IMG/VR virus record: IMGVR_UViG_2778261225_000015
Direction: 5' to 3' (one strand)
DNA from: a virus
Taxonomy: Duplodnaviria > Heunggongvirae > Uroviricota > Caudoviricetes
DNA: 23,768 nucleotides
Below, one piece after another: positions 13 through 23,768 of the stretch. Position 1 is the stretch's first letter; each line of letters opens with the position of its first letter. The translations under genes and the position numbers were made by a program. Below the pieces are notes generated by a model. That model was not told where the DNA came from. It did not search any database and saw nothing but the letters and a program-made list of their open reading frames with translations.

Positions 13-405
13 ATGAAAGAGGATTACACTCAAGCTGACTCATGGCCAGATGATGCTGTTGAAGTTGATGAGCAAGCGTATATTGAGTTTTCCGGATTAC
101 CGCCGAAAGGAAAAATCCGTATCGCTGGAGAAAATGGTTTTCCTGCATGGTCTGAAATTCCACCACCAACACATGAGGAACAGATTGCTGCAGCCGAACT
201 GGAAAAGCAGCAACTGATTAATCAGGCCAACGATTATATGAACAGTAAACAATGGCCTGGTAAAGCGGCTATTGGTCGCCTGAAAGGTGAGGAACTGGCG
301 CAATATAATTTGTGGCTGGATTATCTGGACGCACTGGAACTGGTCGATACCTCCAGTGCTCCAGATATTGAATGGCCTACGCCTCCGGCAGTTCAGGCCA
401 GATGA
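13..405 (+). CDS. Tail fibre assembly protein (Tfa/gpG-like), alternate copy; frame is open back to position 1 so the true 5' end probably lies upstream of the window
   Basis: C-terminal block LWLDYLDALELVDTSSAPDIEWP parallels LNAVLDYIDAVTATDTSTAPDVIWP of the convergent ORF 377..979; no stop between position 1 and the first ATG at 13. Confidence 0.7.
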   Translation: MKEDYTQADSWPDDAVEVDEQAYIEFSGLPPKGKIRIAGENGFPAWSEIPPPTHEEQIAAAELEKQQLINQANDYMNSKQWPGKAAIGRLKGEELAQYNLWLDYLDALELVDTSSAPDIEWPTPPAVQAR

Positions 406-979
406 CATCCGGCGCGGTGCTGGTATCTGTTGCCGTCACCGCGTCAATGTAATCCAGCACGGCGTTAAGTCGGGTTGTTTCTGCCTGCGTCAACTTCCGT
501 CCGGCCTGTAATTTCAGCTGAATCAGACTAATGGAAGCCATTGCTGCATCAATCAGTGACTGGCGCTGTGCTTCTGCCGCGTCTACTGCGGCACTATGCT
601 GTGCCTCAGTATCCGTCACCCATTTCTCACCATCCCATTTATCATATGGCGTTAACGGGGCGATAGTGGTTGTATTTTCAGGGTAATCACCCGGAGCTGT
701 GATTTCTTTCGATTCTCCTGTTTCGGTGCTATAGATGATTTCACCGCGATGGTCTGGCACATATTCCCATGAGTTAAAATCTGCAGAACGGCAGATTGCA
801 TAACCAGCTTTATGTGTAACTGGTGCATCTAAACAAGAACATGCCGGGATACCGACGCCAACCGCAAGATATTCAGTTGATGTGGAAATATATTCCCGCG
901 TTTCACCATCATAATTATAAATGGTAATGTCTCCCGCTTTTATGGCAATGAGTTCGTTATTTAATACGGCTTTATTCAT
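377..979 (-). CDS. Tail fibre assembly protein (Tfa, P2 gpG-like)
   Basis: 200-aa ORF immediately downstream of the tail fibre gene on the same strand (1-nt overlap); Tfa-type C-terminal motif; converges tail-to-tail with the Tfa paralog 13..405. Confidence 0.8.
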   Translation of the reverse strand: MNKAVLNNELIAIKAGDITIYNYDGETREYISTSTEYLAVGVGIPACSCLDAPVTHKAGYAICRSADFNSWEYVPDHRGEIIYSTETGESKEITAPGDYPENTTTIAPLTPYDKWDGEKWVTDTEAQHSAAVDAAEAQRQSLIDAAMASISLIQLKLQAGRKLTQAETTRLNAVLDYIDAVTATDTSTAPDVIWPELPEA

Positions 980-3559: not shown

Positions 3560-3907
3560 TCAACTCACAGGAATAGTCAGTGACAGGGTTTTGCCGGTGT
3601 CCCGGGTCTCGCCGGTCAGCTCAACAATCATCTGACCGTTAAACTGACGTTCTACCGTCAGCGAGCTGATGCTGATGCGCGGCTCCCACTTCAGCAGCGC
3701 CATATAACAGGCGCACATAATTTGCAGTCTCAGCGCGTCGGTCTGCGGCATATCAATCAGGGAGAACAACAGCGAGCCATAATCGCGACGCATCACGCGA
3801 GAGCCGACCGGCGTTCGCAAAATATCGCCACAGCTCTGACGGATGTGATCGGCGTCAGTGATGGCGCGCCCGGTCTCCCTGTTCATACCGATATAACGGG
3901 TCGTCAT
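3560..3907 (-). CDS. W: Baseplate assembly protein W
   Basis: 115 aa, the same length as P2 gpW; ATGA overlap with V. Confidence 0.85.
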   Translation of the reverse strand: MTTRYIGMNRETGRAITDADHIRQSCGDILRTPVGSRVMRRDYGSLLFSLIDMPQTDALRLQIMCACYMALLKWEPRISISSLTVERQFNGQMIVELTGETRDTGKTLSLTIPVS

Positions 3908-4545
3908 TTCGTGCCCTCCGTCCAGGCTCCACCTCTTTGCACACCGCCGTGACCGTGGCTGTCGACCTGAACGCCGTTGGATTTAAACGTACCGTCGGTG
4001 TGTTCGATGTTTCCGCGCATGGTGCCGCCTTGTTGTACCTCAAGCGTCGCCGTCGTCAGTTTGTTGGTGCAGACCACTTCCGGTGTATCGAGGGTGATGC
4101 GGGTCTCGGCTTTCACCGTCACCAGCGGTACCGTCGCGGTGATGGAATCCGACGCCGTAACGTCTGCGGTTTTAATGCCGCTCACGGTCAGCGCGCCGGT
4201 CTCCGGCTCGTACTCGATAACAGCCCCATCAGGAAAGGTGATGTGAAAAGCATCAGCCGACGCCGACGGCGCGGGGTGGTCATCCGAAAAAATGCCGGGC
4301 AGCACAAAAGCGGTGTCGAGTTCACCACCCACGGCCAGCAGTAAAACCTGCTCGCCCACAGACGGAGCCCACCAGACACGTGAACGACCGGCGCGTGTGG
4401 TCAGCCACTGAAGCCAGTCGGTAACAATGCCGCCAGTCTGGACGCGACAGCGCCCGTCATCGAGGTCAACTTCGACGACGACGCCGGTACGTATCAGGTT
4501 GCGAAGGAGGCGTAAAGCGTCCTGAAGAGTTGCGCGAGTATTCAT
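3904..4545 (-). CDS. V: Baseplate hub/spike protein V
   Basis: Start taken at ATG 4545 (MNTRATLQDALRLLRNLIRTGVV, P2 gpV-like); the ORF-track start at 4581 is a TTG further upstream. No clear Shine-Dalgarno for either start. Confidence 0.8.
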   Translation of the reverse strand: MNTRATLQDALRLLRNLIRTGVVVEVDLDDGRCRVQTGGIVTDWLQWLTTRAGRSRVWWAPSVGEQVLLLAVGGELDTAFVLPGIFSDDHPAPSASADAFHITFPDGAVIEYEPETGALTVSGIKTADVTASDSITATVPLVTVKAETRITLDTPEVVCTNKLTTATLEVQQGGTMRGNIEHTDGTFKSNGVQVDSHGHGGVQRGGAWTEGTK

Positions 4546-4621
4546 ACAAGGAAGGATGCCGCCCGGTGCTCTGGACGGCAATTAATGCGGGTTTTACCAG
4601 ATATGGCACAACATACAAAAA

Positions 4622-5965
4622 CTAGCTTGGGGTAACTGTAACCTGACGAGAAAAAACAACAGGCTCCTTCAATTGCTCACATATAATTTTAAAATTAATA
4701 ACTCCAGAGCCAATCGTTAAGGGAATGATGACTATTTCCTCATACTCAACAGTTAAGCTCTGTAACACTTTTTTCGCACGCAACGTGATTTTATGGTCCT
4801 CTTTCATGACCCACTCATCTTGGTTAACTGTTCCTAAATCAGCCATCCGTTTAATTATTGCTGGCACTTCGAAATGAGGTTTAGCCATTACCATCGATGT
4901 ATCATCAAAAATACCCATCCTAAAATTTTCGAGTGACATTATAGCACTGAGTCTTTTTTTATGCTTACTTATTGGGGACTCAGGGATTTTTAATTTCGGC
5001 TCTTTTATAAATAAGTCTTCATTAGAACCTTTAAGCACTATTAGGAATTCAGGAAAATCAATCTCAACATAAACATTTGACGCAAAAGTCCTCCCATTAT
5101 TTCTTAAAACGGGCTTCACTGTAATTGCATTGTTTTTGTAATTACAGTGCAATCTCATTTTTTTATTATATAAATCCACATCTTTATCAGTAGGCAGTGA
5201 AGAGTTATATGATTCAATCTCATCAATGGTGATAGTGTCCTTCAACTCAAGAGGTACCGCTTCCTTGCATAGTTGTGGAAGGTAATCCTGATAAGTCGAC
5301 TCCACATCCACCGTCAAAGCTAAGTCATTATCAATCATGCTCAGCTCTAATTGAGGTGCATCGCTATGTAATTGGCTTTCATATTCGCGGACTTTTTCCC
5401 TTAATTTTCTATTTTCATTAGATAGCTCAGCCAACTCGGCGGTAATCTCTTTAGATGCGACCTGGTCACCGCGCACCCATCCTATTCGTGGATTTCGTCG
5501 CATTACTTTTGGTAAGGCGATAGCAACCTTCGTCGCTAACTCATCAATTGTCTCCCAAAAATCACACATTTTGTTAGCTTTAGCTTTTTCAATAAAAGCA
5601 TTTAGTTGCTTTTCTTTTTGAGGGTCACTTTCTCGTTCATGTGGTTTTGTTAAAACGTCCCTCCCTCTAATAAAAGCCAACACCGGTATATTTAATGATT
5701 TAGCATAGTTATATTCCATTTCAGTATAGCTAATACCATCTTTAGAAACGGACCCATACTTATGCCCAATGATAATCACATAATAATCACTAGCATCAAT
5801 AGTCTCCTTTATTATATCCCACTGCTCAGAGTCATCAGCGCTAAACATCTCCATGCCAACTGGAAAGTGGTATAAACTAAGGACCGTTTCTATGATTTTT
5901 TTGCGAGCATCAATTAAATCGACGTATGTAGAGCTCACAAATACTTGATATTTTTTATTTTCCAT
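4622..5965 (-). CDS. Cargo protein, 447 aa: N-terminal TIR-like/DUF4062-like domain (KYQVFVSSTYVDL...), central coiled coil, C-terminal domain of unknown function; candidate anti-phage defence or exclusion protein
   Basis: Start ATG at 5965 preceded by GAGGA with 4-nt spacing; AT-rich coding sequence embedded between GC-rich S and V genes; N-terminal motif recalled as typical of DUF4062. Confidence 0.75.
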   Translation of the reverse strand: MENKKYQVFVSSTYVDLIDARKKIIETVLSLYHFPVGMEMFSADDSEQWDIIKETIDASDYYVIIIGHKYGSVSKDGISYTEMEYNYAKSLNIPVLAFIRGRDVLTKPHERESDPQKEKQLNAFIEKAKANKMCDFWETIDELATKVAIALPKVMRRNPRIGWVRGDQVASKEITAELAELSNENRKLREKVREYESQLHSDAPQLELSMIDNDLALTVDVESTYQDYLPQLCKEAVPLELKDTITIDEIESYNSSLPTDKDVDLYNKKMRLHCNYKNNAITVKPVLRNNGRTFASNVYVEIDFPEFLIVLKGSNEDLFIKEPKLKIPESPISKHKKRLSAIMSLENFRMGIFDDTSMVMAKPHFEVPAIIKRMADLGTVNQDEWVMKEDHKITLRAKKVLQSLTVEYEEIVIIPLTIGSGVINFKIICEQLKEPVVFSRQVTVTPS

Positions 5966-6002
5966 AACATCCTCACTTGTATAGAAAATAAAATACATAA
6001 AA

Positions 6003-6470
6003 TCAATCAATAGATCTAGCCGCCTCAGCTAAAGAAACCATAATTATGTCATGAATCATATTTTTTGATTCATGATCAAACCCGATAAGCATTCGGGCGT
6101 CATACTGTACCGGCGCACTGTTTCGCCCAGGCTTATCTTTGAGACCGTACTGATGCACATTCGCCATCCGTTGTACCTTGCCGGTAAATTCCACGACCGC
6201 CGAGTCATTCCCCGCTGTGGCTTTCATAAAGCGACTGGTGCGGAGCTTAGCGAACATTTCCCGCTTAACCCGGCCTGTTTTGGCTTTTACCGGCTGGCGT
6301 TTTCGGGCGGCGTAAGGTGTCCCGTCCGGGGCTTTCTGCATTTTAATCCGGCGCTGTTGACGGGCTCGCAGGGTCTTAGCGATATCTGCGGCCATTCTGC
6401 GACGGGCGGCAGGAGACAGCGCTGCTATCAGCCCCGTGAGCGTATCGTCAAAGGGTTTAAAGTCATTCAT
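6003..6470 (-). CDS. S: Tail completion protein S
   Basis: 155 aa, P2 gpS-like sequence and position; overlaps R by 8 nt. Confidence 0.85.
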   Translation of the reverse strand: MNDFKPFDDTLTGLIAALSPAARRRMAADIAKTLRARQQRRIKMQKAPDGTPYAARKRQPVKAKTGRVKREMFAKLRTSRFMKATAGNDSAVVEFTGKVQRMANVHQYGLKDKPGRNSAPVQYDARMLIGFDHESKNMIHDIIMVSLAEAARSID

Positions 6471-6930
6471 GCAATCGACTCACGAGCTCACCGTTAACAT
6501 ACAGCTCAACTGGCCGGGTAACGGGCTCCGGCGGCTGCGGCTCTTCAGCCTGTTCAACGTGAAGCTTATCCCCCTGTTCTTTAACGATAGTGCGCTCGGT
6601 CAGCATCAGACTGATACTGATATCGACGCTGTCGTTGTCGTTGATATCGGCAAAATAGGTGAATCCCTTTTTACGCCCTTCATCGGTCGTCATAATGTCA
6701 GCCTGATGTATGCGTAGCCACGCCTGAATCGGGACGAGTAACAGCTCGATATCATCCGTGAAATCGGTCACCACCACATTCAGCGTGTACCGGTTCTCAA
6801 ACGACAGCGACGTCGCCAGCGTCGAGGCCAGATTCCCGTTGTCGATAAAGACACGCATCATATCGGGGTTTCGTGCCAGCACCGGCACGGCGTCAGTTAA
6901 GGCTTTTCGCAGACTCTTCGGCTTGTACAT
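6463..6930 (-). CDS. R: Tail completion protein R
   Basis: 155 aa, the same length as P2 gpR; position downstream of the lysis genes. Confidence 0.85.
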   Translation of the reverse strand: MYKPKSLRKALTDAVPVLARNPDMMRVFIDNGNLASTLATSLSFENRYTLNVVVTDFTDDIELLLVPIQAWLRIHQADIMTTDEGRKKGFTYFADINDNDSVDISISLMLTERTIVKEQGDKLHVEQAEEPQPPEPVTRPVELYVNGELVSRLHE

Positions 6931-13750: not shown

Positions 13751-14778
13751 TGAGCAAGAATCGCAACAACAAGCGACAGCAGCCGCGCCCCCAAAGTCAC
13801 ACCGCCGCATCGGCACAGAGCATGGAGGCATTCACCTTTGGCGAGCCGACGCCGGTACTCGATCGCCGCGACATTCTCGATTATGTGGAGTGCATCGACA
13901 ACGGCCAATGGTATGAGCCGCCGGTGAGCTTCTCCGGGCTGGCGAAGAGCATGCGCGCCGCCGTTCATCACAGCTCACCGATTTACGTGAAGCGTAATAT
14001 TCTGGTGTCGACCTACATCCCGCACCCGCTGTTATCGCGTCAGGATTTCAGCCGGTTCGTGCTCGATTATCTGGTATTTGGCAACGCCTTTCTCGAAGAG
14101 CGTCGCGGTCTGACTGGCAAGCCGCTAAAGCTGGAGACCTCACCGGCCAAATATACCCGTCGTGGCGTTGATGATGACGTGTACTGGTATATCCAGTCCT
14201 ACACGCAACCGCACCAGTTTTCGCCCGGTTCCGTCTTCCACCTGCTTGAGCCTGATATTAATCAGGAGCTGTACGGGATGCCGGAATACCTGAGCGCACT
14301 CAATTCAGCCTGGCTGAATGAGTCAGCGACACTGTTTCGTCGCAAGTATTACCAGAACGGCGCGCACGCAGGGTACATCATGTATGTGACCGATGCCGCT
14401 CAGAACAGCACTGACGTCGAAGCGTTGCGAAAGGCGATGCGCGACTCGAAAGGGCTCGGCAATTTTAAGAATCTGTTTTTCTACGCACCGCACGGTAAAC
14501 CGGATGGGATTAAAATTGTGCCGCTGAGCGAAGTCGCGACGAAGGATGATTTTTTTAATATCAAGAAAGTCAGCGCCGCTGACCTGCTCGACGCGCACCG
14601 CATCCCGTTCCAGTTGATGGGCGGCAAGCCTGAGAACGTCGGCTCAGTGGGCGATATTGAGAAAGTGGCAAAAGTATTTGTTCGCAATGAATTAACTCCA
14701 TTGCAAGATAGGATTCGTGAATTAAATCATTGGTTTGGTGATAATTTAATTAAGTTCAAGCCGTATACCTTTGATTAA
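13750..14778 (+). CDS. Q: Portal (capsid portal vertex) protein Q
   Basis: P2 gpQ-like, about 343 aa from ATG 13750 (MSKNRNNKRQQ...), GGAG upstream; the GTG at 13741 is an alternative start. Confidence 0.9.
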   Translation: MSKNRNNKRQQPRPQSHTAASAQSMEAFTFGEPTPVLDRRDILDYVECIDNGQWYEPPVSFSGLAKSMRAAVHHSSPIYVKRNILVSTYIPHPLLSRQDFSRFVLDYLVFGNAFLEERRGLTGKPLKLETSPAKYTRRGVDDDVYWYIQSYTQPHQFSPGSVFHLLEPDINQELYGMPEYLSALNSAWLNESATLFRRKYYQNGAHAGYIMYVTDAAQNSTDVEALRKAMRDSKGLGNFKNLFFYAPHGKPDGIKIVPLSEVATKDDFFNIKKVSAADLLDAHRIPFQLMGGKPENVGSVGDIEKVAKVFVRNELTPLQDRIRELNHWFGDNLIKFKPYTFD

Positions 14779-14794
14779 GTATGAATGCAAAAAA

Positions 14795-14824
14795 TCCAGA
14801 GTCCATTATAATAATGACTCTGGA
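14795..14824. terminator. Hairpin between convergent portal gene and cargo operon; likely rho-independent terminator for the minus-strand operon, possibly bidirectional
   Basis: Perfect 9-bp stem TCCAGAGTC / GACTCTGGA (14795..14803 and 14816..14824) with a 12-nt AT-rich loop; on the minus strand it is followed directly by a T6 run (complement of AAAAAA 14789..14794). Confidence 0.5.
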
Positions 14825-14834
14825 TGAAAATGTT

Positions 14835-15521
14835 TTATTGCTTATCTTGTGGTGGTGGAACCTCTTTTTCTAAATTATCTACATACTCTCTAATATTGAA
14901 TGCTTTGTTTTTCCTTATTTCGGTAGTGTTAACCTTACTAACACCATCACGAATGTTTTTATTTATGGTGTCTATTAATTTTTGTCTTTCTTGTTCTGTT
15001 TTTATTATTTCACTTAAGAATGACTTTGCGTTTCTTGAAATGTCCGTCTGTCTATTAATGAATAGTATCGCATACACTGAAAAAACCAAGCAAGTAGTCG
15101 TTAGTGCGGAATTAAAAAATACCCCATAATAAACATTAACTTTTGTTATTGACGCTGATAACGTTAGTGATATCAAAAAAAACAAAATCAGGGTAAAAAT
15201 ATATGCAATGGTTACTTTGTTTTTAGTGGTGTCAAGAATGTATGAAGTTCTTTGATCATCAAAGTAATCCTTTATCCTTGATGGAGTGTTTGCGGGGAGT
15301 TCTAACTCCTTTATTTTATCATCAGCATCAATTAGTCGCTTAAACATGAGGCTAATGATTACGGCGCTAAAGACAGAGATCCCCTTTGAAATTATAGGAT
15401 CGAAATCAATTAAAAATGAGTATTTTGAATAAACAAAAACAATAACAAAACCACATATAAGCCCAATTACAATTGAGCTTGCTATGTTTTTTGCATATGT
15501 TTGTAACGTATTGTTTATCAT
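14835..15521 (-). CDS. Integral membrane protein, 228 aa, four predicted TM helices (2 + loop + 2) with cytoplasmic charged tail; second gene of a two-gene cargo operon
   Basis: Hydrophobic segments near residues 13-31, 47-60, 114-135 and 141-165; ATGA start/stop overlap with the upstream gene; AT-rich. Confidence 0.7.
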   Translation of the reverse strand: MINNTLQTYAKNIASSIVIGLICGFVIVFVYSKYSFLIDFDPIISKGISVFSAVIISLMFKRLIDADDKIKELELPANTPSRIKDYFDDQRTSYILDTTKNKVTIAYIFTLILFFLISLTLSASITKVNVYYGVFFNSALTTTCLVFSVYAILFINRQTDISRNAKSFLSEIIKTEQERQKLIDTINKNIRDGVSKVNTTEIRKNKAFNIREYVDNLEKEVPPPQDKQ

Positions 15522-16501
15522 GGGTTAATTACTCCGGTGTCTAGTAAGCGCAATAACCATGAAATCATTTCTTCAGCAACGTTGTCAGCAATTAGCATTC
15601 CATTGCTGTATTCAATATTAACTGAATCCTTTAGTTGAATCTCATCATTCCTGAGTATTCCTGCACCTTTTAACTCAATTGTTAAGCTTTCATCTCTATT
15701 ATCAACCAAGCCTTGTGTAATTTTACGCAACATGTCTTGCTCAGACTCGCTTGCTTTATATTTATACCCAATGGAAATATCAATTGATAGAGATTCCCTG
15801 TCAGGTGAACCATCATTTAAAATGGTATTTTTCTTCATTTCATTAATTCGATGTTCACCTACGAGCGTTTTTAATAGCTCACTAGCTGTATCATCAATAT
15901 TATTTCCATAGTAGGTTAAAGGCAGCTTTAAGCTAACATTTTTTACTATGTTACGTTTTAAAAAATCCGTATTTAGAGACAGGTTGTTTGCCTGTAAAAC
16001 GATGAAGTTATCATCAGTAATAGATAGGTTGTCTTGTAGTATGAAATTTATATAATTTTCAATATCTTTTATTCTAATAGATCTGCTTTGCAGAATTATG
16101 AAGTGGTTCTTAATCACACCAATGTATGCAATGCTTTCTAAATACTCTCTAGCATTCCCACTTGATAAATTTAATGTCTCGTATGTTAAAGCTGTTTTAG
16201 CATAATCGCTAACAGAGAAAACAGGAATGCTACTACCCGGTTCAATATAGACAATTTCCGCAAAAAACATTCCATGAATTTCTTTGCTATTTGAAAGAAC
16301 CATGTGGGCGTGAGCAGCGACATTACCATTATTATCTGGAACATCAGGGAAGAATAATCTATCAGCAACATTTGGAACCTTGATTTTCACAAGGTTTGCC
16401 AACCTATCTTGCAGGTTTGATGTTAAAAGAGCATCCTTTTTAGGAAGCATTATTGCATGGCGATAATGCAGCATTTTACTCTTATAATCTTGCGTTGCCA
16501 T
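15518..16501 (-). CDS. Uncharacterised soluble protein, 327 aa; first gene of a two-gene cargo operon at the portal/cos hotspot
   Basis: ATG 16501 preceded by AGAGGGA; no Walker A, HxH or GxSxG motif seen by eye; AT-rich codon usage unlike the phage backbone. Confidence 0.75.
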   Translation of the reverse strand: MATQDYKSKMLHYRHAIMLPKKDALLTSNLQDRLANLVKIKVPNVADRLFFPDVPDNNGNVAAHAHMVLSNSKEIHGMFFAEIVYIEPGSSIPVFSVSDYAKTALTYETLNLSSGNAREYLESIAYIGVIKNHFIILQSRSIRIKDIENYINFILQDNLSITDDNFIVLQANNLSLNTDFLKRNIVKNVSLKLPLTYYGNNIDDTASELLKTLVGEHRINEMKKNTILNDGSPDRESLSIDISIGYKYKASESEQDMLRKITQGLVDNRDESLTIELKGAGILRNDEIQLKDSVNIEYSNGMLIADNVAEEMISWLLRLLDTGVINP

Positions 16502-16572
16502 AGAATCCCTCTTGCTATGAATATGTTATACACGGAGCGAAGCAATTATGTATTGTATTGCTCTGGCGCGCA

Positions 16573-16591
16573 ATGCTATCCCCGCCACGCC
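16573..16591. other. Putative cos site (19-nt cohesive-end sequence of a 186-like phage)
   Basis: ATGCTATCCCCGCCACGCC; its reverse complement GGCGTGGCGGGGATAGCAT differs at one position from the phage 186 cohesive end as I recall it (GGCGTGGCGGGGAAAGCAT; P2 is GGCGAGGCGGGGAAAGCAC). Confidence 0.55.
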
Positions 16592-17095: not shown

Positions 17096-17244
17096 TAACG
17101 TATTGGCAAAAGATGGGAAGAGAAAAAGTGAATCGGGTAGGTGTTGTATGTACATGATATGGATGTAAATTAATCACCTGTGAGTTTTGATGTTTCTGCC
17201 AGCACCGCAACACGATTAAGGATTTCCCTAGGCTTTGCCTGAAG

Positions 17245-19392
17245 CTATGGCGCTGCGGAGAAAATTTCACCTTTGGACGTTCCACGCAACCATTTACCGT
17301 TAATACAACTTTTGCCACCTGCTATCAGGTGCAGGGCTTCTCCCCGGCTGATGGTAATGCCGGTTGTCAGACGGATCTCGTCGATAGTTTTTTCTATCGG
17401 AGCACTTTGCTCATCTGTTCCGTGGATAAATTTCGGCCTCTTAGGTGGCTTTGGTTTCCTGATTCGGTTCGTCAGCTCTCGCCTTTCACGTCGACTCAGG
17501 GGTTTTGATAAATCGAGTTCCGGTGGATCGCTTTCGCTTCCCGTACAGTTATTGACAGAACTCCAAGGGACGGCGAAGCCGTCCTTAACGTCAACGGCCA
17601 AATCAACGGCACGCTTCGGAACAATTTTCCATTGCGTGAGCCGGGTTAAAATCGGAGTGCCAACACCAACGGTGGAGTCGTACACACCACGAATGCAGAC
17701 AGTTTCCTCACCATACTGGTTAAACTCGGTGCGCGGTTCATAAAGCGTACGCACCTGCAAATCATCGCGACGGACAAACGGACCGCCCTGCGCATTAACA
17801 TAGCCAGCCCAATCACCGGCATCGGCGGCATCATGGACAGCCGCAAACTCAACACTTAGACCGTGCGCGGTCTCGGTATCTGCAAGGCGACGCAATTCAC
17901 GATAAACAGTCACTGGTGCACCACCGATAAACTGAAACTGACGAATATGCCAGCGCGCCGCCCATGCTGAAACGGCGGGGGCTGTCTCTTTCAACAGTTC
18001 ACCGTTTTCGTCATCGGTTTCGTCATCAAGAGCGTAACCGTCGATATTTTTCGAGATGTATTTCGCGACGTAGCCGGTTGCGCTGCCTTTCTCCGGATCA
18101 ATGGCTTCTGCGTGGAAACGTGCTTTTTTGGCTTTATCGCTTTTGAGTTCGTGAAAATCTTCTTGCCATGCGTAGTCCCGAATAATGCCACGAACGGTAT
18201 CGACGTCCTCCGGGAGCATAAACATCAGCATATGCCAGTGAGGGCACCCGTCATGGTGAGGCTCTGCAACGCGGATCCCGAAAATACGAATGTCTTCACG
18301 GTGGAGTTTTGCGCGAATGCGTGCCCACAGGCCAGTGAGATAACATTGCGTATCGGATGGATTGGATCCATTCCATTTGGTGTTACGGTAGCCTGCCTTT
18401 GTCGTGGCGTGATATTTAGACGGTGCGGTCAGGGTGTAAAACTCACCAACATAACCGAGCTCATTGCAGATATTTTCAAACCCACGAATGCGGGTCATAA
18501 GCTCACAGCGTCGAATCGCAGAGTTAGCGACTGAACCATCGTATTTTTCAATCAGGCTGATACGGTTGCCGTCTTCGTCTTCAAGCTCCAGACCTTTGAG
18601 AAATTCGCGCGTCCGGCGCTTCTGTTCACGCCAGTCTGTCACGCAGTTTTTACTCGCGTAGACATGTTTTTTCTTACTGACATTTCCGATTGCGATTTGC
18701 AGGTGTTCGCGCCACGCAGCCGCAATGCGACGCAGACGGCCACGCCACCATTTTTCCGAAAACATACGGGCAATTGCTGGAGCGACTTTATCCTGATCCC
18801 AATATTTATCCCGCGACCGTTCCCACTCTGGTGGCATTATCCTGAATTGCTGAGTGATGAAACCAGCATGCATATACCAGGCATTTAATGTCTCCAGTTC
18901 ACACATGTCAGAATCGTCAATGTTGACTAACTCTGCACGGATAAAATCGGCGATATCAGCAGCCAGCAGGTCGATGTCGGCGCGTGCCATATCCGGGAGT
19001 CGGTTGTATCTGGCGACTATGTTGACCATGCGAGACGCCAGATATTGCATAAGCTGAGTATCGAAATGACAACCGAAAACAGCGGCTGATACGTTGCTGT
19101 TAATACCGGTACACTCGTATTTTTTTGCGACCAGTTCAAAACGCGGCAATGCCTTTTTGCAGAAGCTTATTAAAAAAGCATTGGCTCGTTGACTGCCCTG
19201 ATTTTGCTCCAGCACCGCAGCAGTGCGATAAACGTCAAAACGTACACACTCGGGCTGGAGGGAAAGCACCTTTCTAGCATGCAGCAAAGCCGCGAGCATA
19301 CGGTCGCGGCGATACTGTTGGTCGTAGGTAAGATATGGACTGGCTATTGCCGACCGTGGAGCATTCCACGGAAACGCGAATTGAACAGCCAA
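17245..19392 (-). CDS. A: Replication initiation protein A (rolling-circle replication endonuclease, P2/186 gpA family)
   Basis: 715 aa, gpA-like size and position; the first codon is TTG at 19392 with GGGGGA 7 nt upstream, directly after the stop of the upstream zinc-finger gene; no in-frame ATG near the 5' end. Confidence 0.85.
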   Translation of the reverse strand: MAVQFAFPWNAPRSAIASPYLTYDQQYRRDRMLAALLHARKVLSLQPECVRFDVYRTAAVLEQNQGSQRANAFLISFCKKALPRFELVAKKYECTGINSNVSAAVFGCHFDTQLMQYLASRMVNIVARYNRLPDMARADIDLLAADIADFIRAELVNIDDSDMCELETLNAWYMHAGFITQQFRIMPPEWERSRDKYWDQDKVAPAIARMFSEKWWRGRLRRIAAAWREHLQIAIGNVSKKKHVYASKNCVTDWREQKRRTREFLKGLELEDEDGNRISLIEKYDGSVANSAIRRCELMTRIRGFENICNELGYVGEFYTLTAPSKYHATTKAGYRNTKWNGSNPSDTQCYLTGLWARIRAKLHREDIRIFGIRVAEPHHDGCPHWHMLMFMLPEDVDTVRGIIRDYAWQEDFHELKSDKAKKARFHAEAIDPEKGSATGYVAKYISKNIDGYALDDETDDENGELLKETAPAVSAWAARWHIRQFQFIGGAPVTVYRELRRLADTETAHGLSVEFAAVHDAADAGDWAGYVNAQGGPFVRRDDLQVRTLYEPRTEFNQYGEETVCIRGVYDSTVGVGTPILTRLTQWKIVPKRAVDLAVDVKDGFAVPWSSVNNCTGSESDPPELDLSKPLSRRERRELTNRIRKPKPPKRPKFIHGTDEQSAPIEKTIDEIRLTTGITISRGEALHLIAGGKSCINGKWLRGTSKGEIFSAAP

Positions 19393-21811: not shown

Positions 21812-22849
21812 ATGAGTGTTAAAAAACTGACATCGGGTGAATGGCTTTGTGATTTCCGCGTCGACGGGGCTGAAAGTCGCCGCGTGCGTAAGAAGTTTTC
21901 AACCAAAGGTGAAGCCGTTGCCTTCGAGCAGTATTACCGAGAAGAGGCACAAAATAAGCCGTGGATGGGTGAGAAGGAAGACCGTCGACGTTTGAGTGAA
22001 CTGATTGAGCTGTGGCATAACCTCCATGGCCAGTCGCTCGCTGCCAGCAAATCGCGATTGGCCAAACTGCACATTGTTTGCCGGGGTCTTGGCGACCCAA
22101 TCGCTACCCAGCTTACCGCCAAAGATTTCGCCCATTATCGGGATAAACGTCTCAAGGGTGAAATCGACAATGGCTATCACGCAAATTCTGAAAAGTGGAT
22201 TGCGAAACCTGTGACTGTGAACCGGGAACAACAGTACCTCGAAGCTGTTTTCAATGAGCTGAAGCGCTTGGGTGAGTGGAGTCTGCCAAATCCTCTCGAA
22301 GGTGTGCGAGTTTTCAAAGAAGCCGAAAAAGAAATGTCTTGGCTTACCCAGCCTCAAATTCGCGAAGTGCTCAATGCTTGTGAGTCATACGGGAAAATTT
22401 ATTTAACCCGTATCGTCAAAGTGTGCTTAGCGACTGGTGCTCGATGGAGCGAGGCCGAGCGTCTTACTCGTTCACAGCTTTCACCCCACAAGTTGACTTT
22501 CACTAAAACGAAGGGAAAGAAGAATCGTACAGTACCGATCCCTCGGTGGCTATATGACGAGTTGGCTCCTTTACAGGGAAAAATGTTCCACCCCTGCTAT
22601 CAGGAGTTCAAGAAAATGCTCGCTCTGACCGATATAGAGTTAGCTGAAGGGCAAAAAACGCATGTGTTACGTCATACATTTGCGAGTCACTTTATGATGA
22701 ATGGTGGGAACATTTTAGTACTGCAACGAATCTTGGGCCATTCTAACATTAGGGAAACCATGAGATACGCTCATTTTGCACCAGATCATTTAGAAGAAGC
22801 TGTAACTCTTAACCCTATTTCTAATTTAACAGGATTATATGATGAGTGA
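21812..22849 (+). CDS. int: Tyrosine-recombinase integrase
   Basis: 345 aa; C-terminal catalytic block HVLRHTFASHFMMNGGNILVLQRILGHSNIRETMRYAHF (R..H-x-x-R...Y signature). Confidence 0.9.
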   Translation: MSVKKLTSGEWLCDFRVDGAESRRVRKKFSTKGEAVAFEQYYREEAQNKPWMGEKEDRRRLSELIELWHNLHGQSLAASKSRLAKLHIVCRGLGDPIATQLTAKDFAHYRDKRLKGEIDNGYHANSEKWIAKPVTVNREQQYLEAVFNELKRLGEWSLPNPLEGVRVFKEAEKEMSWLTQPQIREVLNACESYGKIYLTRIVKVCLATGARWSEAERLTRSQLSPHKLTFTKTKGKKNRTVPIPRWLYDELAPLQGKMFHPCYQEFKKMLALTDIELAEGQKTHVLRHTFASHFMMNGGNILVLQRILGHSNIRETMRYAHFAPDHLEEAVTLNPISNLTGLYDE

Positions 22850-23768
22850 GCCAACCATCGAAACACCTCCAAGAATGACCGAGGCCAAAGTCATTAGGGT
22901 ACGCACTCGTGGTTTTTATAATTTAGTTGAGATAGGTGCAGTCTTTCTAGTTGCAAATGTAATTTTTGCTACAGGGATATTAGACTCAACCTTTTATTAT
23001 TTATTTCCCAGTGCGAGAGCAGATCTTACACATTTGCCGAGCTTTATCAGGTCAATATTCGCAGTGTCATTTGTAATCGTTTACACCATTATCTATGGTG
23101 TGTCTCCAATCCAAAGAATGTTTATGAGAATTACAGGGAGTGATTCAGTCGACAAATCATCGATGTTTAATATTGTCGATATTATAAATGAGATAAAACT
23201 ACTCAAGAAGGCTCAAGAGGAAAGGGCTGCTGCTGATGAAGATGAATCTCTGGATTTTTATCTTAAAGGTTTGATTAATAGCTCTGAAGGTCTTGCGAAA
23301 AACATATATTCTCGCGGTAGTCTTTATTTATTAGTCGGTGTTTGTTTTGCAATAGTTGGATTAGGTTTCTTCTATTCTCAATCACATGTAATTGATGCTA
23401 AGGATGATGCGGTAACCAAGGTAATGTATCTTCTCCCTAATTTTGGCGTGTTGATTTTCTTGGAGTTAATCGCATTTTTCTTTTTGAAGCAATATCGGGT
23501 TACGATGGATGAGTTTCGCTATTACGAGGCAATAAAACGTTCACGTGAGGAAAGCTATGCCATTATAAAGCTTGTAATGGCTAGCCAGAAAGATATCGAT
23601 ATGATAGACCTTCTGGATAAAATTAATTTTAGCTCAAGAGTTGGAAAACTAGAATCAGGGCAGACTACTGAAATTATTGAAGCAAGAAAATTAGACAAAA
23701 ATGAACTTGAAACCTTAGTAAAGCTTACCGAGGCAGTTGCGGGTAAGATTGGACAGGGAAATAAGTAG
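22839..23768 (+). CDS. Integral membrane protein, 309 aa, four predicted TM helices with cytoplasmic loop and tail; cargo gene downstream of int
   Basis: AGGA upstream of tandem ATGs at 22839/22842; overlaps the int stop by 11 nt; AT-rich; stop codon is the last three bases of the window. Confidence 0.7.
   Translation: MMSEPTIETPPRMTEAKVIRVRTRGFYNLVEIGAVFLVANVIFATGILDSTFYYLFPSARADLTHLPSFIRSIFAVSFVIVYTIIYGVSPIQRMFMRITGSDSVDKSSMFNIVDIINEIKLLKKAQEERAAADEDESLDFYLKGLINSSEGLAKNIYSRGSLYLLVGVCFAIVGLGFFYSQSHVIDAKDDAVTKVMYLLPNFGVLIFLELIAFFFLKQYRVTMDEFRYYEAIKRSREESYAIIKLVMASQKDIDMIDLLDKINFSSRVGKLESGQTTEIIEARKLDKNELETLVKLTEAVAGKIGQGNK

Follow-up and report, generated by a model that had tools for sequence, protein, structure and literature searches.

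A predicted single-gene DUF4062 defence system with a distinct sensor-like domain at the S-V junction of a P2-like prophage

The cargo gene and its characterised relatives

The window analysed here is a stretch of 23,768 nucleotides (nt) from a P2-like (Peduoviridae) prophage of Escherichia coli (IMG/VR record IMGVR_UViG_2778261225_000015). Between its genes for the tail completion protein gpS and the baseplate assembly protein gpV lies one minus-strand gene, here called the cargo gene, whose product of 447 amino acids (aa) bears the RefSeq name 'DUF4062 domain-containing protein' (WP_001366609.1). Positions 4400-6150 are 100% identical in E. coli FORC 064 and nine more complete genomes, and the cargo region is at least 99.6% identical in 15 of the 5,426 complete E. 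coli genomes. On its own, the cargo probably provides anti-phage defence by abortive infection, as a single-protein system of the DUF4062 (Swarozyc/Evangelion) superfamily, and is exchangeable at the S-V junction of the prophage.

Two recent preprints frame this reading. Osinski et al. (10.64898/2026.05.01.722283) identified DUF4062 as a TIR-like NAD+ hydrolase (NADase), present also in the human vault protein TEP1, and described KpSwz ('Swarozyc') of Klebsiella pneumoniae, which confers broad anti-phage defence by abortive infection and needs both residue E97 and a C-terminal AUX domain. The AUX domain of KpSwz, about 120 residues with the fold of helix-turn-helix (HTH)/winged-helix domains, binds the portal protein of phage Bas14 and so activates the enzyme, sitting as a crescent on the portal with a W238/Y239 hairpin as its anchor; the products are ADP-ribose and nicotinamide, with no cyclic signalling nucleotide, and the dimer has a distinct AB interface (10.64898/2026.05.01.722283). 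KpSwz structures determined by cryo-electron microscopy are deposited as PDB 10wc, 11cq and 11cv. Ibarra-Chavez et al. (10.64898/2026.06.25.731849) grouped single-gene systems composed of DUF4062 and an AUX region under the name 'Evangelion'; one of them, Eva01, needs F11, E87 and W162 together with its AUX region, lowers NAD+ on infection and acts by abortive infection, and escape from it has been mapped to genes for phage recombination and replication (10.64898/2026.06.25.731849).

The features of the locus are as follows.

4622..5965, minus: cargo gene, 447-aa DUF4062 protein (list of open reading frames and sequence, RefSeq annotation, family alignment)
5471..5953, minus: TIR-like DUF4062 domain, residues ~5-165, predicted NADase effector (Pfam, phmmer to KpSwz, AlphaFold2 model)
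5714..5716, minus: codon of E84, predicted catalytic glutamate, in the motif ISYTEMEY (alignment to KpSwz E97 and Eva01 E87)
5357..5470, minus: linker and coiled-coil stalk, residues 166-203, with the W163-proximal GWVRGD and LSxENRxLR (predicted helix, KpSwz homology)
4625..5356, minus: C-terminal 'long AUX' domain, residues 204-447, with post-stalk hairpin, helices and Ig-like beta-sandwich; predicted sensor
4817..4915, minus: hypervariable loop, residues 351-383 (low model confidence and family variability)
5970..5974, minus: Shine-Dalgarno motif GAGGA, 4-nt spacer to the ATG (read from the sequence)
6003..6470, minus: gpS, tail completion/virion morphogenesis, last gene of the O operon and upstream edge of the slot (annotation; tblastn to phage 186 and P2-like phages)
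4608..4613, minus: TGTTGT element of the P_V late-promoter region, downstream edge of the slot (alignment with P2 and three other S-V loci)
3904..4545, minus: gpV, baseplate assembly protein V, which opens the V operon; downstream flank (annotation)

The cargo gene starts with ATG at 5965-5963 and stops with TAG at 4624-4622. Both the open reading frame (ORF) list and the sequence agree with an earlier reading made from the letters alone (hereafter the original prediction), which had called a minus-strand gene with its ATG at 5965, a GAGGA ribosome-binding site and a stop at 4622; other alleles of the slot carry a GAGG/GGAG-like motif at the equivalent place. The listed ORF, 4622..6010, would give 462 aa if started from a TTG at 6010, a form that appears as an annotation variant in some database records. 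Because 38 of 40 members of the family alignment begin at the methionine of ATG 5965, we take this to be the real start. The striking AT-richness claimed relative to both neighbours is equally plain, with a G+C content (GC) of 0.34-0.40 over 4700-6100 against 0.55-0.62 on either flank. The gene stands alone in its slot, with intergenic gaps of 37 and 76 nt.

A DUF4062 domain joined to a helical stalk

The N terminus of the cargo protein matches PF13271 (DUF4062) over residues 7-88 and profile positions 1-82 of 82 (hmmscan; expect value (E)=1.8e-28; score 99 bits, cutoff 24.7), a full-length match that bears out the DUF4062 N terminus proposed originally. None of the Pfam TIR-family models (TIR, TIR_2 and others of the STIR clan) reached E<=1, DUF4062 being the only model to match the N-terminal region, and the TIR relationship of the domain is the one reported at the level of fold and clan. 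Comparison with the KpSwz chain (PDB 10wc_A) by phmmer aligned residues 3-209 with E=3.3e-46, and identity over the first ~209 residues is 41%; the family profile extends the match to residues 3-259 (E=1e-64), and hhalign of the two family alignments pairs cargo residues 1-247 with KpSwz 1-252 (probability 100%, E=5.8e-61). In the AlphaFold model of the full protein, with a mean predicted local distance difference test score (pLDDT) of 81, an alpha/beta domain occupies residues 8-157.

The core motifs are in place, namely F9, Q48-W49-D50 (family consensus QWE), S79-Y80-T81-E82-M83-E84-Y85 and W163, and F9, Q48-W49, E84-Y85 and W163 are invariant in 40 family members. E84, found in 40 of 40, occupies the position of KpSwz E97, TEP1 E1008 and Eva01 E87; the deposited KpSwz chain is the E97A mutant, and its alanine aligns with E84. 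W163 aligns with KpSwz W176 and Eva01 W162. Beyond it, a long helix predicted at residues 172-201 is homologous to the helical stalk of KpSwz and accounts for the coiled coil that had been read from the sequence. The cargo protein resembles Swarozyc, then, in being the product of a single gene with an N-terminal DUF4062 TIR-like domain, a homologous helical stalk and a first post-stalk hairpin, and in conserving the catalytic glutamate (E97 in KpSwz, E84 in the cargo) and the tryptophan (W176 and W163, respectively). From these alignments we infer NADase activity for the cargo protein.

Similarity to Evangelion is confined to the core. An Eva01-type gene of a Staphylococcus aureus plasmid aligns such that its F11, W51-E52, E87-Y88 and W162 map to F9, W49-D50, E84-Y85 and W163 of the cargo protein, and the ISYTEMEY block is identical in the two. 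Across 201 Staphylococcus plasmids, tblastn matched residues 5-165 only, at 38% identity, and nothing aligned past W163. Both proteins pair a conserved DUF4062 core with a diversified AUX region, which is required for defence in Eva01; unlike the cargo, Eva01 has no long coiled-coil stalk, its AUX is short, and it is carried on plasmids of Gram-positive bacteria (pMW2-type, S. aureus). By its single-gene architecture and core motifs the cargo protein belongs to Evangelion as broadly defined, and it falls outside the Eva01 lineage, with which it has no full-length similarity that includes the AUX. In S. aureus plasmid NZ_CP062335.1 (locus L169, 1183-1737) the Eva01-type gene is annotated as 184 aa and ends soon after W162, with a 134-aa ORF next to it. 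The published Eva01 reaches at least F212, which hints at a frameshifted or split form of the gene in some plasmids.

The original prediction had also suggested a match to the TIR-like systems of P2/P4 hotspots. Canonical TIR defences (Thoeris ThsB/ThsA, TIR-STAND/Avs-like and SARM1-type) do resemble the predicted cargo system in their flavodoxin-like TIR fold, catalytic glutamate, NAD+ consumption as the immune output through oligomerisation, and presence in P2/P4 hotspots, but the cargo has neither a STAND NTPase nor a separate effector gene; Swarozyc and Evangelion are instead the relevant precedents. PADLOC-DB v2 (2023) returned no family at E<=1 for the 447-aa protein. KpSwz (our protein P0135) likewise has no PADLOC match, so this null is uninformative for the cargo protein, and defence annotation of the 2023 era, as represented by PADLOC, is blind to the whole DUF4062 defence family.

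A conserved C-terminal fold without family assignment

Residues 205-447 match no Pfam, NCBIfam or PADLOC family, in keeping with the roughly 250 residues without a recognisable motif that had been noted at first reading. Modelled alone from 54 sequences, the C-terminal domain reaches a pLDDT of 89.9 and a predicted template modelling score of 0.77. Besides the post-stalk hairpin and helices, it contains an Ig-like beta-sandwich and a single loop that is disordered. The loop has a pLDDT below 50 at residues 352-381 and varies in length from 19 to 39 residues across the family, and N254, P258, N289, G291, A295, P305, P331, P415 and G419 are invariant in 40 members. The top Foldseek match in the PDB is TTHA1873, among generic Ig-like/macroglobulin sandwich matches at 6-19% identity, and a search of viral folds in BFVD likewise gave generic beta-sandwich matches only. 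As modelled, the domain is a real, conserved fold, a binding-type beta-sandwich without an enzyme match, and we infer that it serves as a phage sensor. The PDB fold matches, being those of a generic sandwich at such low identity, are not taken to point to an enzymatic function.

Modular sensor classes and allele divergence

ORFs taken from 160 fetched loci (L numbers throughout denote fetched loci) were clustered by their C-terminal region. The long-AUX class, to which the window protein belongs, comprises 80 loci with proteins of about 440-460 aa, and the short-AUX class, which includes the KpSwz AUX, 55 loci with proteins of about 320-360 aa; about 12 small C-terminal classes exist besides, so that one N-terminal module has been combined with at least 2 large classes of C terminus and some 12 small ones. 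Of the tested proteins, KpSwz (WP_202404386) and that of Salmonella (UniRef100_UPI0021D4C267) belong to the short-AUX class, with 325-326 aa; this class is found on mobile elements of Enterobacteriaceae, P2 hotspots among them. An E. coli short-AUX homologue of 326 aa, present on 364 contigs, is likely the tested EcDUF4062 (UPI0002A39D72). According to Osinski et al., the five tested proteins have similar AUX domains (10.64898/2026.05.01.722283). The long-AUX class most likely lies outside the tested set, of which two Swarozyc proteins could be mapped to sequence; there is a small chance that a long-AUX protein is already among the tested ones, UPI0002A39D72 and Eva02-04 being unmapped.

The C-terminal domain is in turn found on different N termini. 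An exhaustive phmmer search with this domain alone against 1.84 billion cluster representatives (E<=1e-3) gave 155 matches, nearly all of them proteins of 420-490 aa matched at about residues 200-447. Two complete proteins, both devoid of DUF4062, are exceptions to the usual long-AUX architecture. In P0335 (371 aa; L165, 267-1382) a HetE-N domain (PF20701, E=1.6e-11) precedes the long-AUX domain, which matches the C terminus of the window protein with a BLASTP E of 2e-22. HetE-N is a death-effector-type domain; a literature search on HetE-N found no relevant paper. In P0359 (646 aa; L166, 3227-5167) a hydrophobic, apparently membrane-spanning N terminus and a region of no known kind come before the long AUX, and the gene lies near genes for DUF6119 and AAA_15/AAA_21 ATPases. 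P0335 and P0359 are possible further single-gene defence architectures. One effector with many C termini, and one C terminus with several N termini, is what a sensor-effector immune protein would be expected to show.

Divergence is distributed in the same way. The alleles that occupy the S-V slot are 78-85% identical to the window protein over the N-terminal 200 residues and 31-38% over the C-terminal domain. Family-wide, mean pairwise identity falls from 69% in the TIR-like core to 46% in the stalk, 24% in the hairpin, 26-36% in the C-terminal segments excluding the loop, and 14% in the loop itself (residues 351-383). At the DNA level, comparison with locus L096 shows sharp-edged tiers of identity, at 89-97% in gpR/gpS, 72-81% in the effector half of the cargo, 44-55% in the sensor half and 93-96% in gpV, where the high value resumes from position 4540 downward. 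The cargo is an allele series at the S-V junction of P2-like phages, with a conserved effector and a fast-diverging sensor.

These comparisons bear on the alternative that comes closest to the abortive-infection reading, namely that the cargo is a plain Swarozyc orthologue which senses the portal as KpSwz does, with a C terminus that is merely a divergent portal-binding AUX. The homology of the N-terminal 209-250 residues extends through the first post-stalk hairpin, the very hairpin that serves KpSwz as its portal anchor, and large multimeric phage structural proteins often trigger defence systems. Against this, the hairpin tip of the long-AUX family lacks the W238/Y239 pair, the profile-profile alignment ends at residue ~247 (KpSwz ~252), and the C terminus shows no similarity to the KpSwz AUX, either by BLASTP against full-length KpSwz (E=8.5) or between the long-AUX and short-AUX classes, for which the best match was not significant (E=0.04 over 28 residues). 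In size and predicted fold the two differ as well, a beta-sandwich of ~245 residues with helical inserts in a protein of 447 aa standing against a winged helix of ~120 residues in one of 325 aa, so that the HTH/winged-helix fold, the W238/Y239 anchor and the module of alpha-loop-beta type that characterise the Swarozyc AUX are missing from the cargo protein; both tested Swarozyc proteins mapped to sequence are, moreover, of the short class. Portal sensing by an orthologous AUX is on this evidence unlikely.

The S-V operon junction as a cargo slot

In the reference P2 annotation, a rho-independent terminator lies behind S, the last gene of the O operon; next come the nonessential Orf30, which has 261 aa and is encoded on the other strand, and then the activator-binding site and Ogr-dependent P_V promoter that precede V. 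The cargo occupies exactly the position of orf30, with the end of S on one side and the P_V promoter on the other. The TGTTGT element of the P_V region lies 9-14 nt past the cargo stop and is invariant across P2 and three further S-V slot loci. The original prediction had the place right when it set the gene in the gap where P2 carries orf30; its description of orf30 as small does not fit an antisense gene for a protein of 261 aa. Nor does the cargo lie inside the late operon, as had been supposed: the O operon, with S as its last gene, meets the V operon at this slot, and because TGTTGT of the P_V region follows the cargo stop, the gene stands between two late operons and not within one.

P2 itself carries nonessential cargo genes at several places (orf30 at the S-V junction, old/tin at A-Q and Z/fun in the tail region), and the cargo gene is like these in being AT-rich, horizontally acquired DNA. 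With orf30 it shares the position and no sequence kinship, and it lies on the late-gene strand, whereas Orf30 is antisense; the terminator found after S in P2 is likewise not recognisable at the window locus. At the upstream edge, the last ~70 nt of gpS (6003-6075), a gene that RefSeq labels 'phage virion morphogenesis protein', are already AT-rich, its DNA identity to L096 drops from 93-97% to 82% at 6190-6041, and phage 186 and its relatives align by tblastn to gpS residues 1-149 of 155 only; judged from these alignments, the cargo cassette appears to have replaced the end of gpS.

The gene order gpR-gpS-cargo-gpV-gpW-gpJ was found in 21 of 21 IMG/VR loci with full-length homologues (44-100% identity). 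The recurrent position, the GC dip and the sharp-edged tiers of DNA identity are those of a P2-type hotspot. P2 hotspots are established reservoirs of defence systems (PMC9122126; 10.64898/2026.02.27.708500; 10.1101/2024.10.15.618418), and the S-V junction is not among the hotspots named in these three sources.

Distribution of the architecture

The full-length architecture was detected in 1,235 homologues; among the best 120 of these, query coverage is at least 96% save for one partial sequence, and identity is 40-62% apart from the query's own cluster at 96%. The taxa include Enterobacterales, Vibrionaceae, Pasteurellaceae, Bacillota, Bacteroidota, Verrucomicrobiota, Spirochaetota, Planctomycetota and others. 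Homologues occur on plasmids also, one of Salmonella at 95.7% identity and one of Priestia at 40%. Some relatives lie downstream of tail-fibre genes (L103, L104, L108), and others adjoin the portal gene Q at the classic old/tin hotspot, with a long AUX in L112 and other AUX classes in L140, L141, L144 and L154-158. The genes flanking 23 non-P2 loci encode 134 proteins that include type I restriction-modification subunits, ResIII, AAA_15/AAA_21 ATPases, reverse transcriptases, Fic, integrases and transposases.

Two E. coli DUF4062 genes with different C termini were seen in other settings. One, of 344 aa (L164, 3227-4261), adjoins the portal gene in the P2 Q-A hotspot; the other, of 273 aa (L163, 3443-4264), lies in an integrase/reverse-transcriptase island beside mutS.

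Predicted mechanism and competing interpretations

Homology to KpSwz (E=3.3e-46) and to the Eva01 core argues for the single-gene defence or abortive-infection effector proposed originally, and it permits a mechanism to be outlined. Residues ~5-165 would act as a TIR-like NADase with E84 as the catalytic glutamate, and the stalk (residues ~166-203) would keep the TIR-like domains in an autoinhibited head-to-head oligomer, as in KpSwz, until the beta-sandwich of residues 204-447, expressed with them in the lysogen, bound a component of an infecting phage. Because this domain is unrelated to the winged-helix AUX, the trigger is probably recognised otherwise than in KpSwz and may not be the portal. 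Binding would rearrange the stalks and E84-dependent NAD+ hydrolysis would follow; the resulting depletion of NAD+ would stop the infected cell and block propagation of the phage, which would protect the lysogen population and so the prophage.

Several observations weigh against this reading. The function of the cargo, and of the long-AUX class at large, is deduced from homology, and Osinski et al. point out that what DUF4062 does could be more complex than the hydrolysis of NAD+ (10.64898/2026.05.01.722283). Eva02, another DUF4062 lineage, gave no protection in published tests (10.64898/2026.06.25.731849), so that membership of the superfamily is no guarantee of a detectable phenotype. The gene is rare in E. 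coli (15 of 5,426 complete genomes), no full-length homologue was found by megablast or tblastn in 50,697 deposited phage genomes, and the non-P2 neighbourhoods, for which there is no background baseline, are no more than suggestive of a defence context. A scan of 4300-6500, in which promoter and terminator counts were at or under shuffled expectation, revealed no recognisable intrinsic terminator between gpS and the cargo and no above-chance sigma-70 promoter upstream of it, and inspection by eye found no convincing -35/-10 pair. Since neither an own promoter nor a gpS terminator was found, expression in the lysogen is a presumption, and the cargo gene may be mainly co-transcribed with the late genes.

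A GGTATTTT-like motif follows a T-run ~25 nt 5' of the cargo ATG (window 5985-6000, with equivalents in L087-L102) and is kept in most divergent alleles of the slot despite the diverged intergenic DNA around it. Read from its sequence and position, it could be a candidate -10 element or a piece of the O-operon terminator.

Late co-transcription would suit an enzyme that benefits the phage, such as a late-expressed NAD(P)-nucleotide hydrolase for counter-defence or lysogenic conversion that aids P2 or acts against P4-type satellites or co-infecting phages. The cargo is oriented like the late genes, and neither a terminator between gpS and the cargo nor a dedicated sigma-70 promoter is recognisable, where P2 has an antisense gene behind a terminator in this slot. 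The GGTATTTT-like motif could nonetheless supply an own -10 element, the architecture occurs in many phyla without detectable P2-type structural genes in flanks of up to 8 kb per side, the nearest characterised relatives are host-protective abortive-infection systems, and a hypervariable, sensor-like C terminus together with alternative N termini fits an immune sensor; we regard a phage-benefit role as improbable. Still less probable is that the gene is silent or in decay, a passenger of no present function, or that it serves to stabilise the prophage as a toxin-type addiction module. The annotation of replication gene A as a pseudogene with an internal stop, which leaves the element possibly defective, and the failure to find a promoter would fit such a passenger, but 15 unrelated E. 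coli genomes have the ORF intact and at 99.6% identity or more, its catalytic and structural invariants are all kept, and the gaps of 37 and 76 nt are too small for an antitoxin ORF. A virion-associated tail protein with an Ig-like decoration domain, which the place amid tail genes and the resemblance of the Ig-like core to phage decoration and adhesin domains might suggest, is scarcely credible for AT-rich foreign DNA that is missing from P2, 186 and the deposited phage genomes, that P2-like phages function without, whose N-terminal half is a TIR-like NADase homologue and which recurs where no P2-type structural genes are detectable nearby, in Firmicutes, Bacteroidota, Verrucomicrobia and other phyla.

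We return to the abortive-infection system as the favoured reading. Its general function is already known from the 2026 preprints, from which the role of DUF4062 in immunity dates; what sets the present locus apart is a widespread sensor class, an allele series and a little-noticed P2 site. The activation logic has been solved for one sensor type, the portal-binding AUX of KpSwz; in the window, the same effector and stalk bear a second class, which is widespread and unrelated in structure. Hotspot-based discovery could usefully take in the S-V (orf30) junction of P2-like phages as a site of defence cargo, and its natural allele series makes the sensor target, and a swap of specificity by C-terminal exchange, directly testable; a further testable question is how the prophage avoids its own NADase during its own late gene expression.

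More tentatively, and with much less confidence than in the defence role, the C-terminal domain might be a phage-sensing module of a new kind, autonomous and transferable, in which a beta-sandwich bears a hypervariable loop and which is carried on at least three N-terminal modules, with the S-V slot of P2-like prophages holding a library of its specificity alleles. If so, each S-V allele would recognise a phage component, possibly another structural protein, in a manner unlike that of the portal-binding AUX. The position right behind the late O operon might then give the gene a boost at late-gene activation, and a boosted gene could have a role in phage-phage or phage-satellite conflict besides the protection of the lysogen.

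Other features of the window

Three further places in the window resemble, or recall, known P2 cargo sites. Two overlapping minus-strand ORFs of 228 and 327 aa lie at 14835-16501, between portal gene Q and replication gene A, the site of the classic P2 old/tin defence hotspot; both fall in DNA with a GC of 0.32-0.35 and lack a significant match in Pfam or PADLOC. They are a candidate two-gene defence cassette. At 22839-23768 on the plus strand, an AT-rich ORF of at least 309 aa (GC 0.36-0.41) overlaps the 3' end of the integrase gene and runs off the end of the window, with no convincing Pfam or PADLOC match; the integrase-att position has been reported as a minor P2 defence hotspot (10.64898/2026.02.27.708500). 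Tail-fibre assembly genes in both orientations are found at window 13-979 and in L001 at 14547-16580, with a recombinase-family gene just outside the window, and the segment looks like an invertible host-range segment, as noted for the Z/fun-region hotspot of P2 (10.1101/2024.10.15.618418).

The replication endonuclease gene A, at ~17170-19392 on the minus strand, is the RefSeq pseudogene with an internal stop mentioned above and is represented by ORFs of 715 and 120 aa. The prophage may be replication-defective, yet its cargo region is 100% identical in ten unrelated strains.

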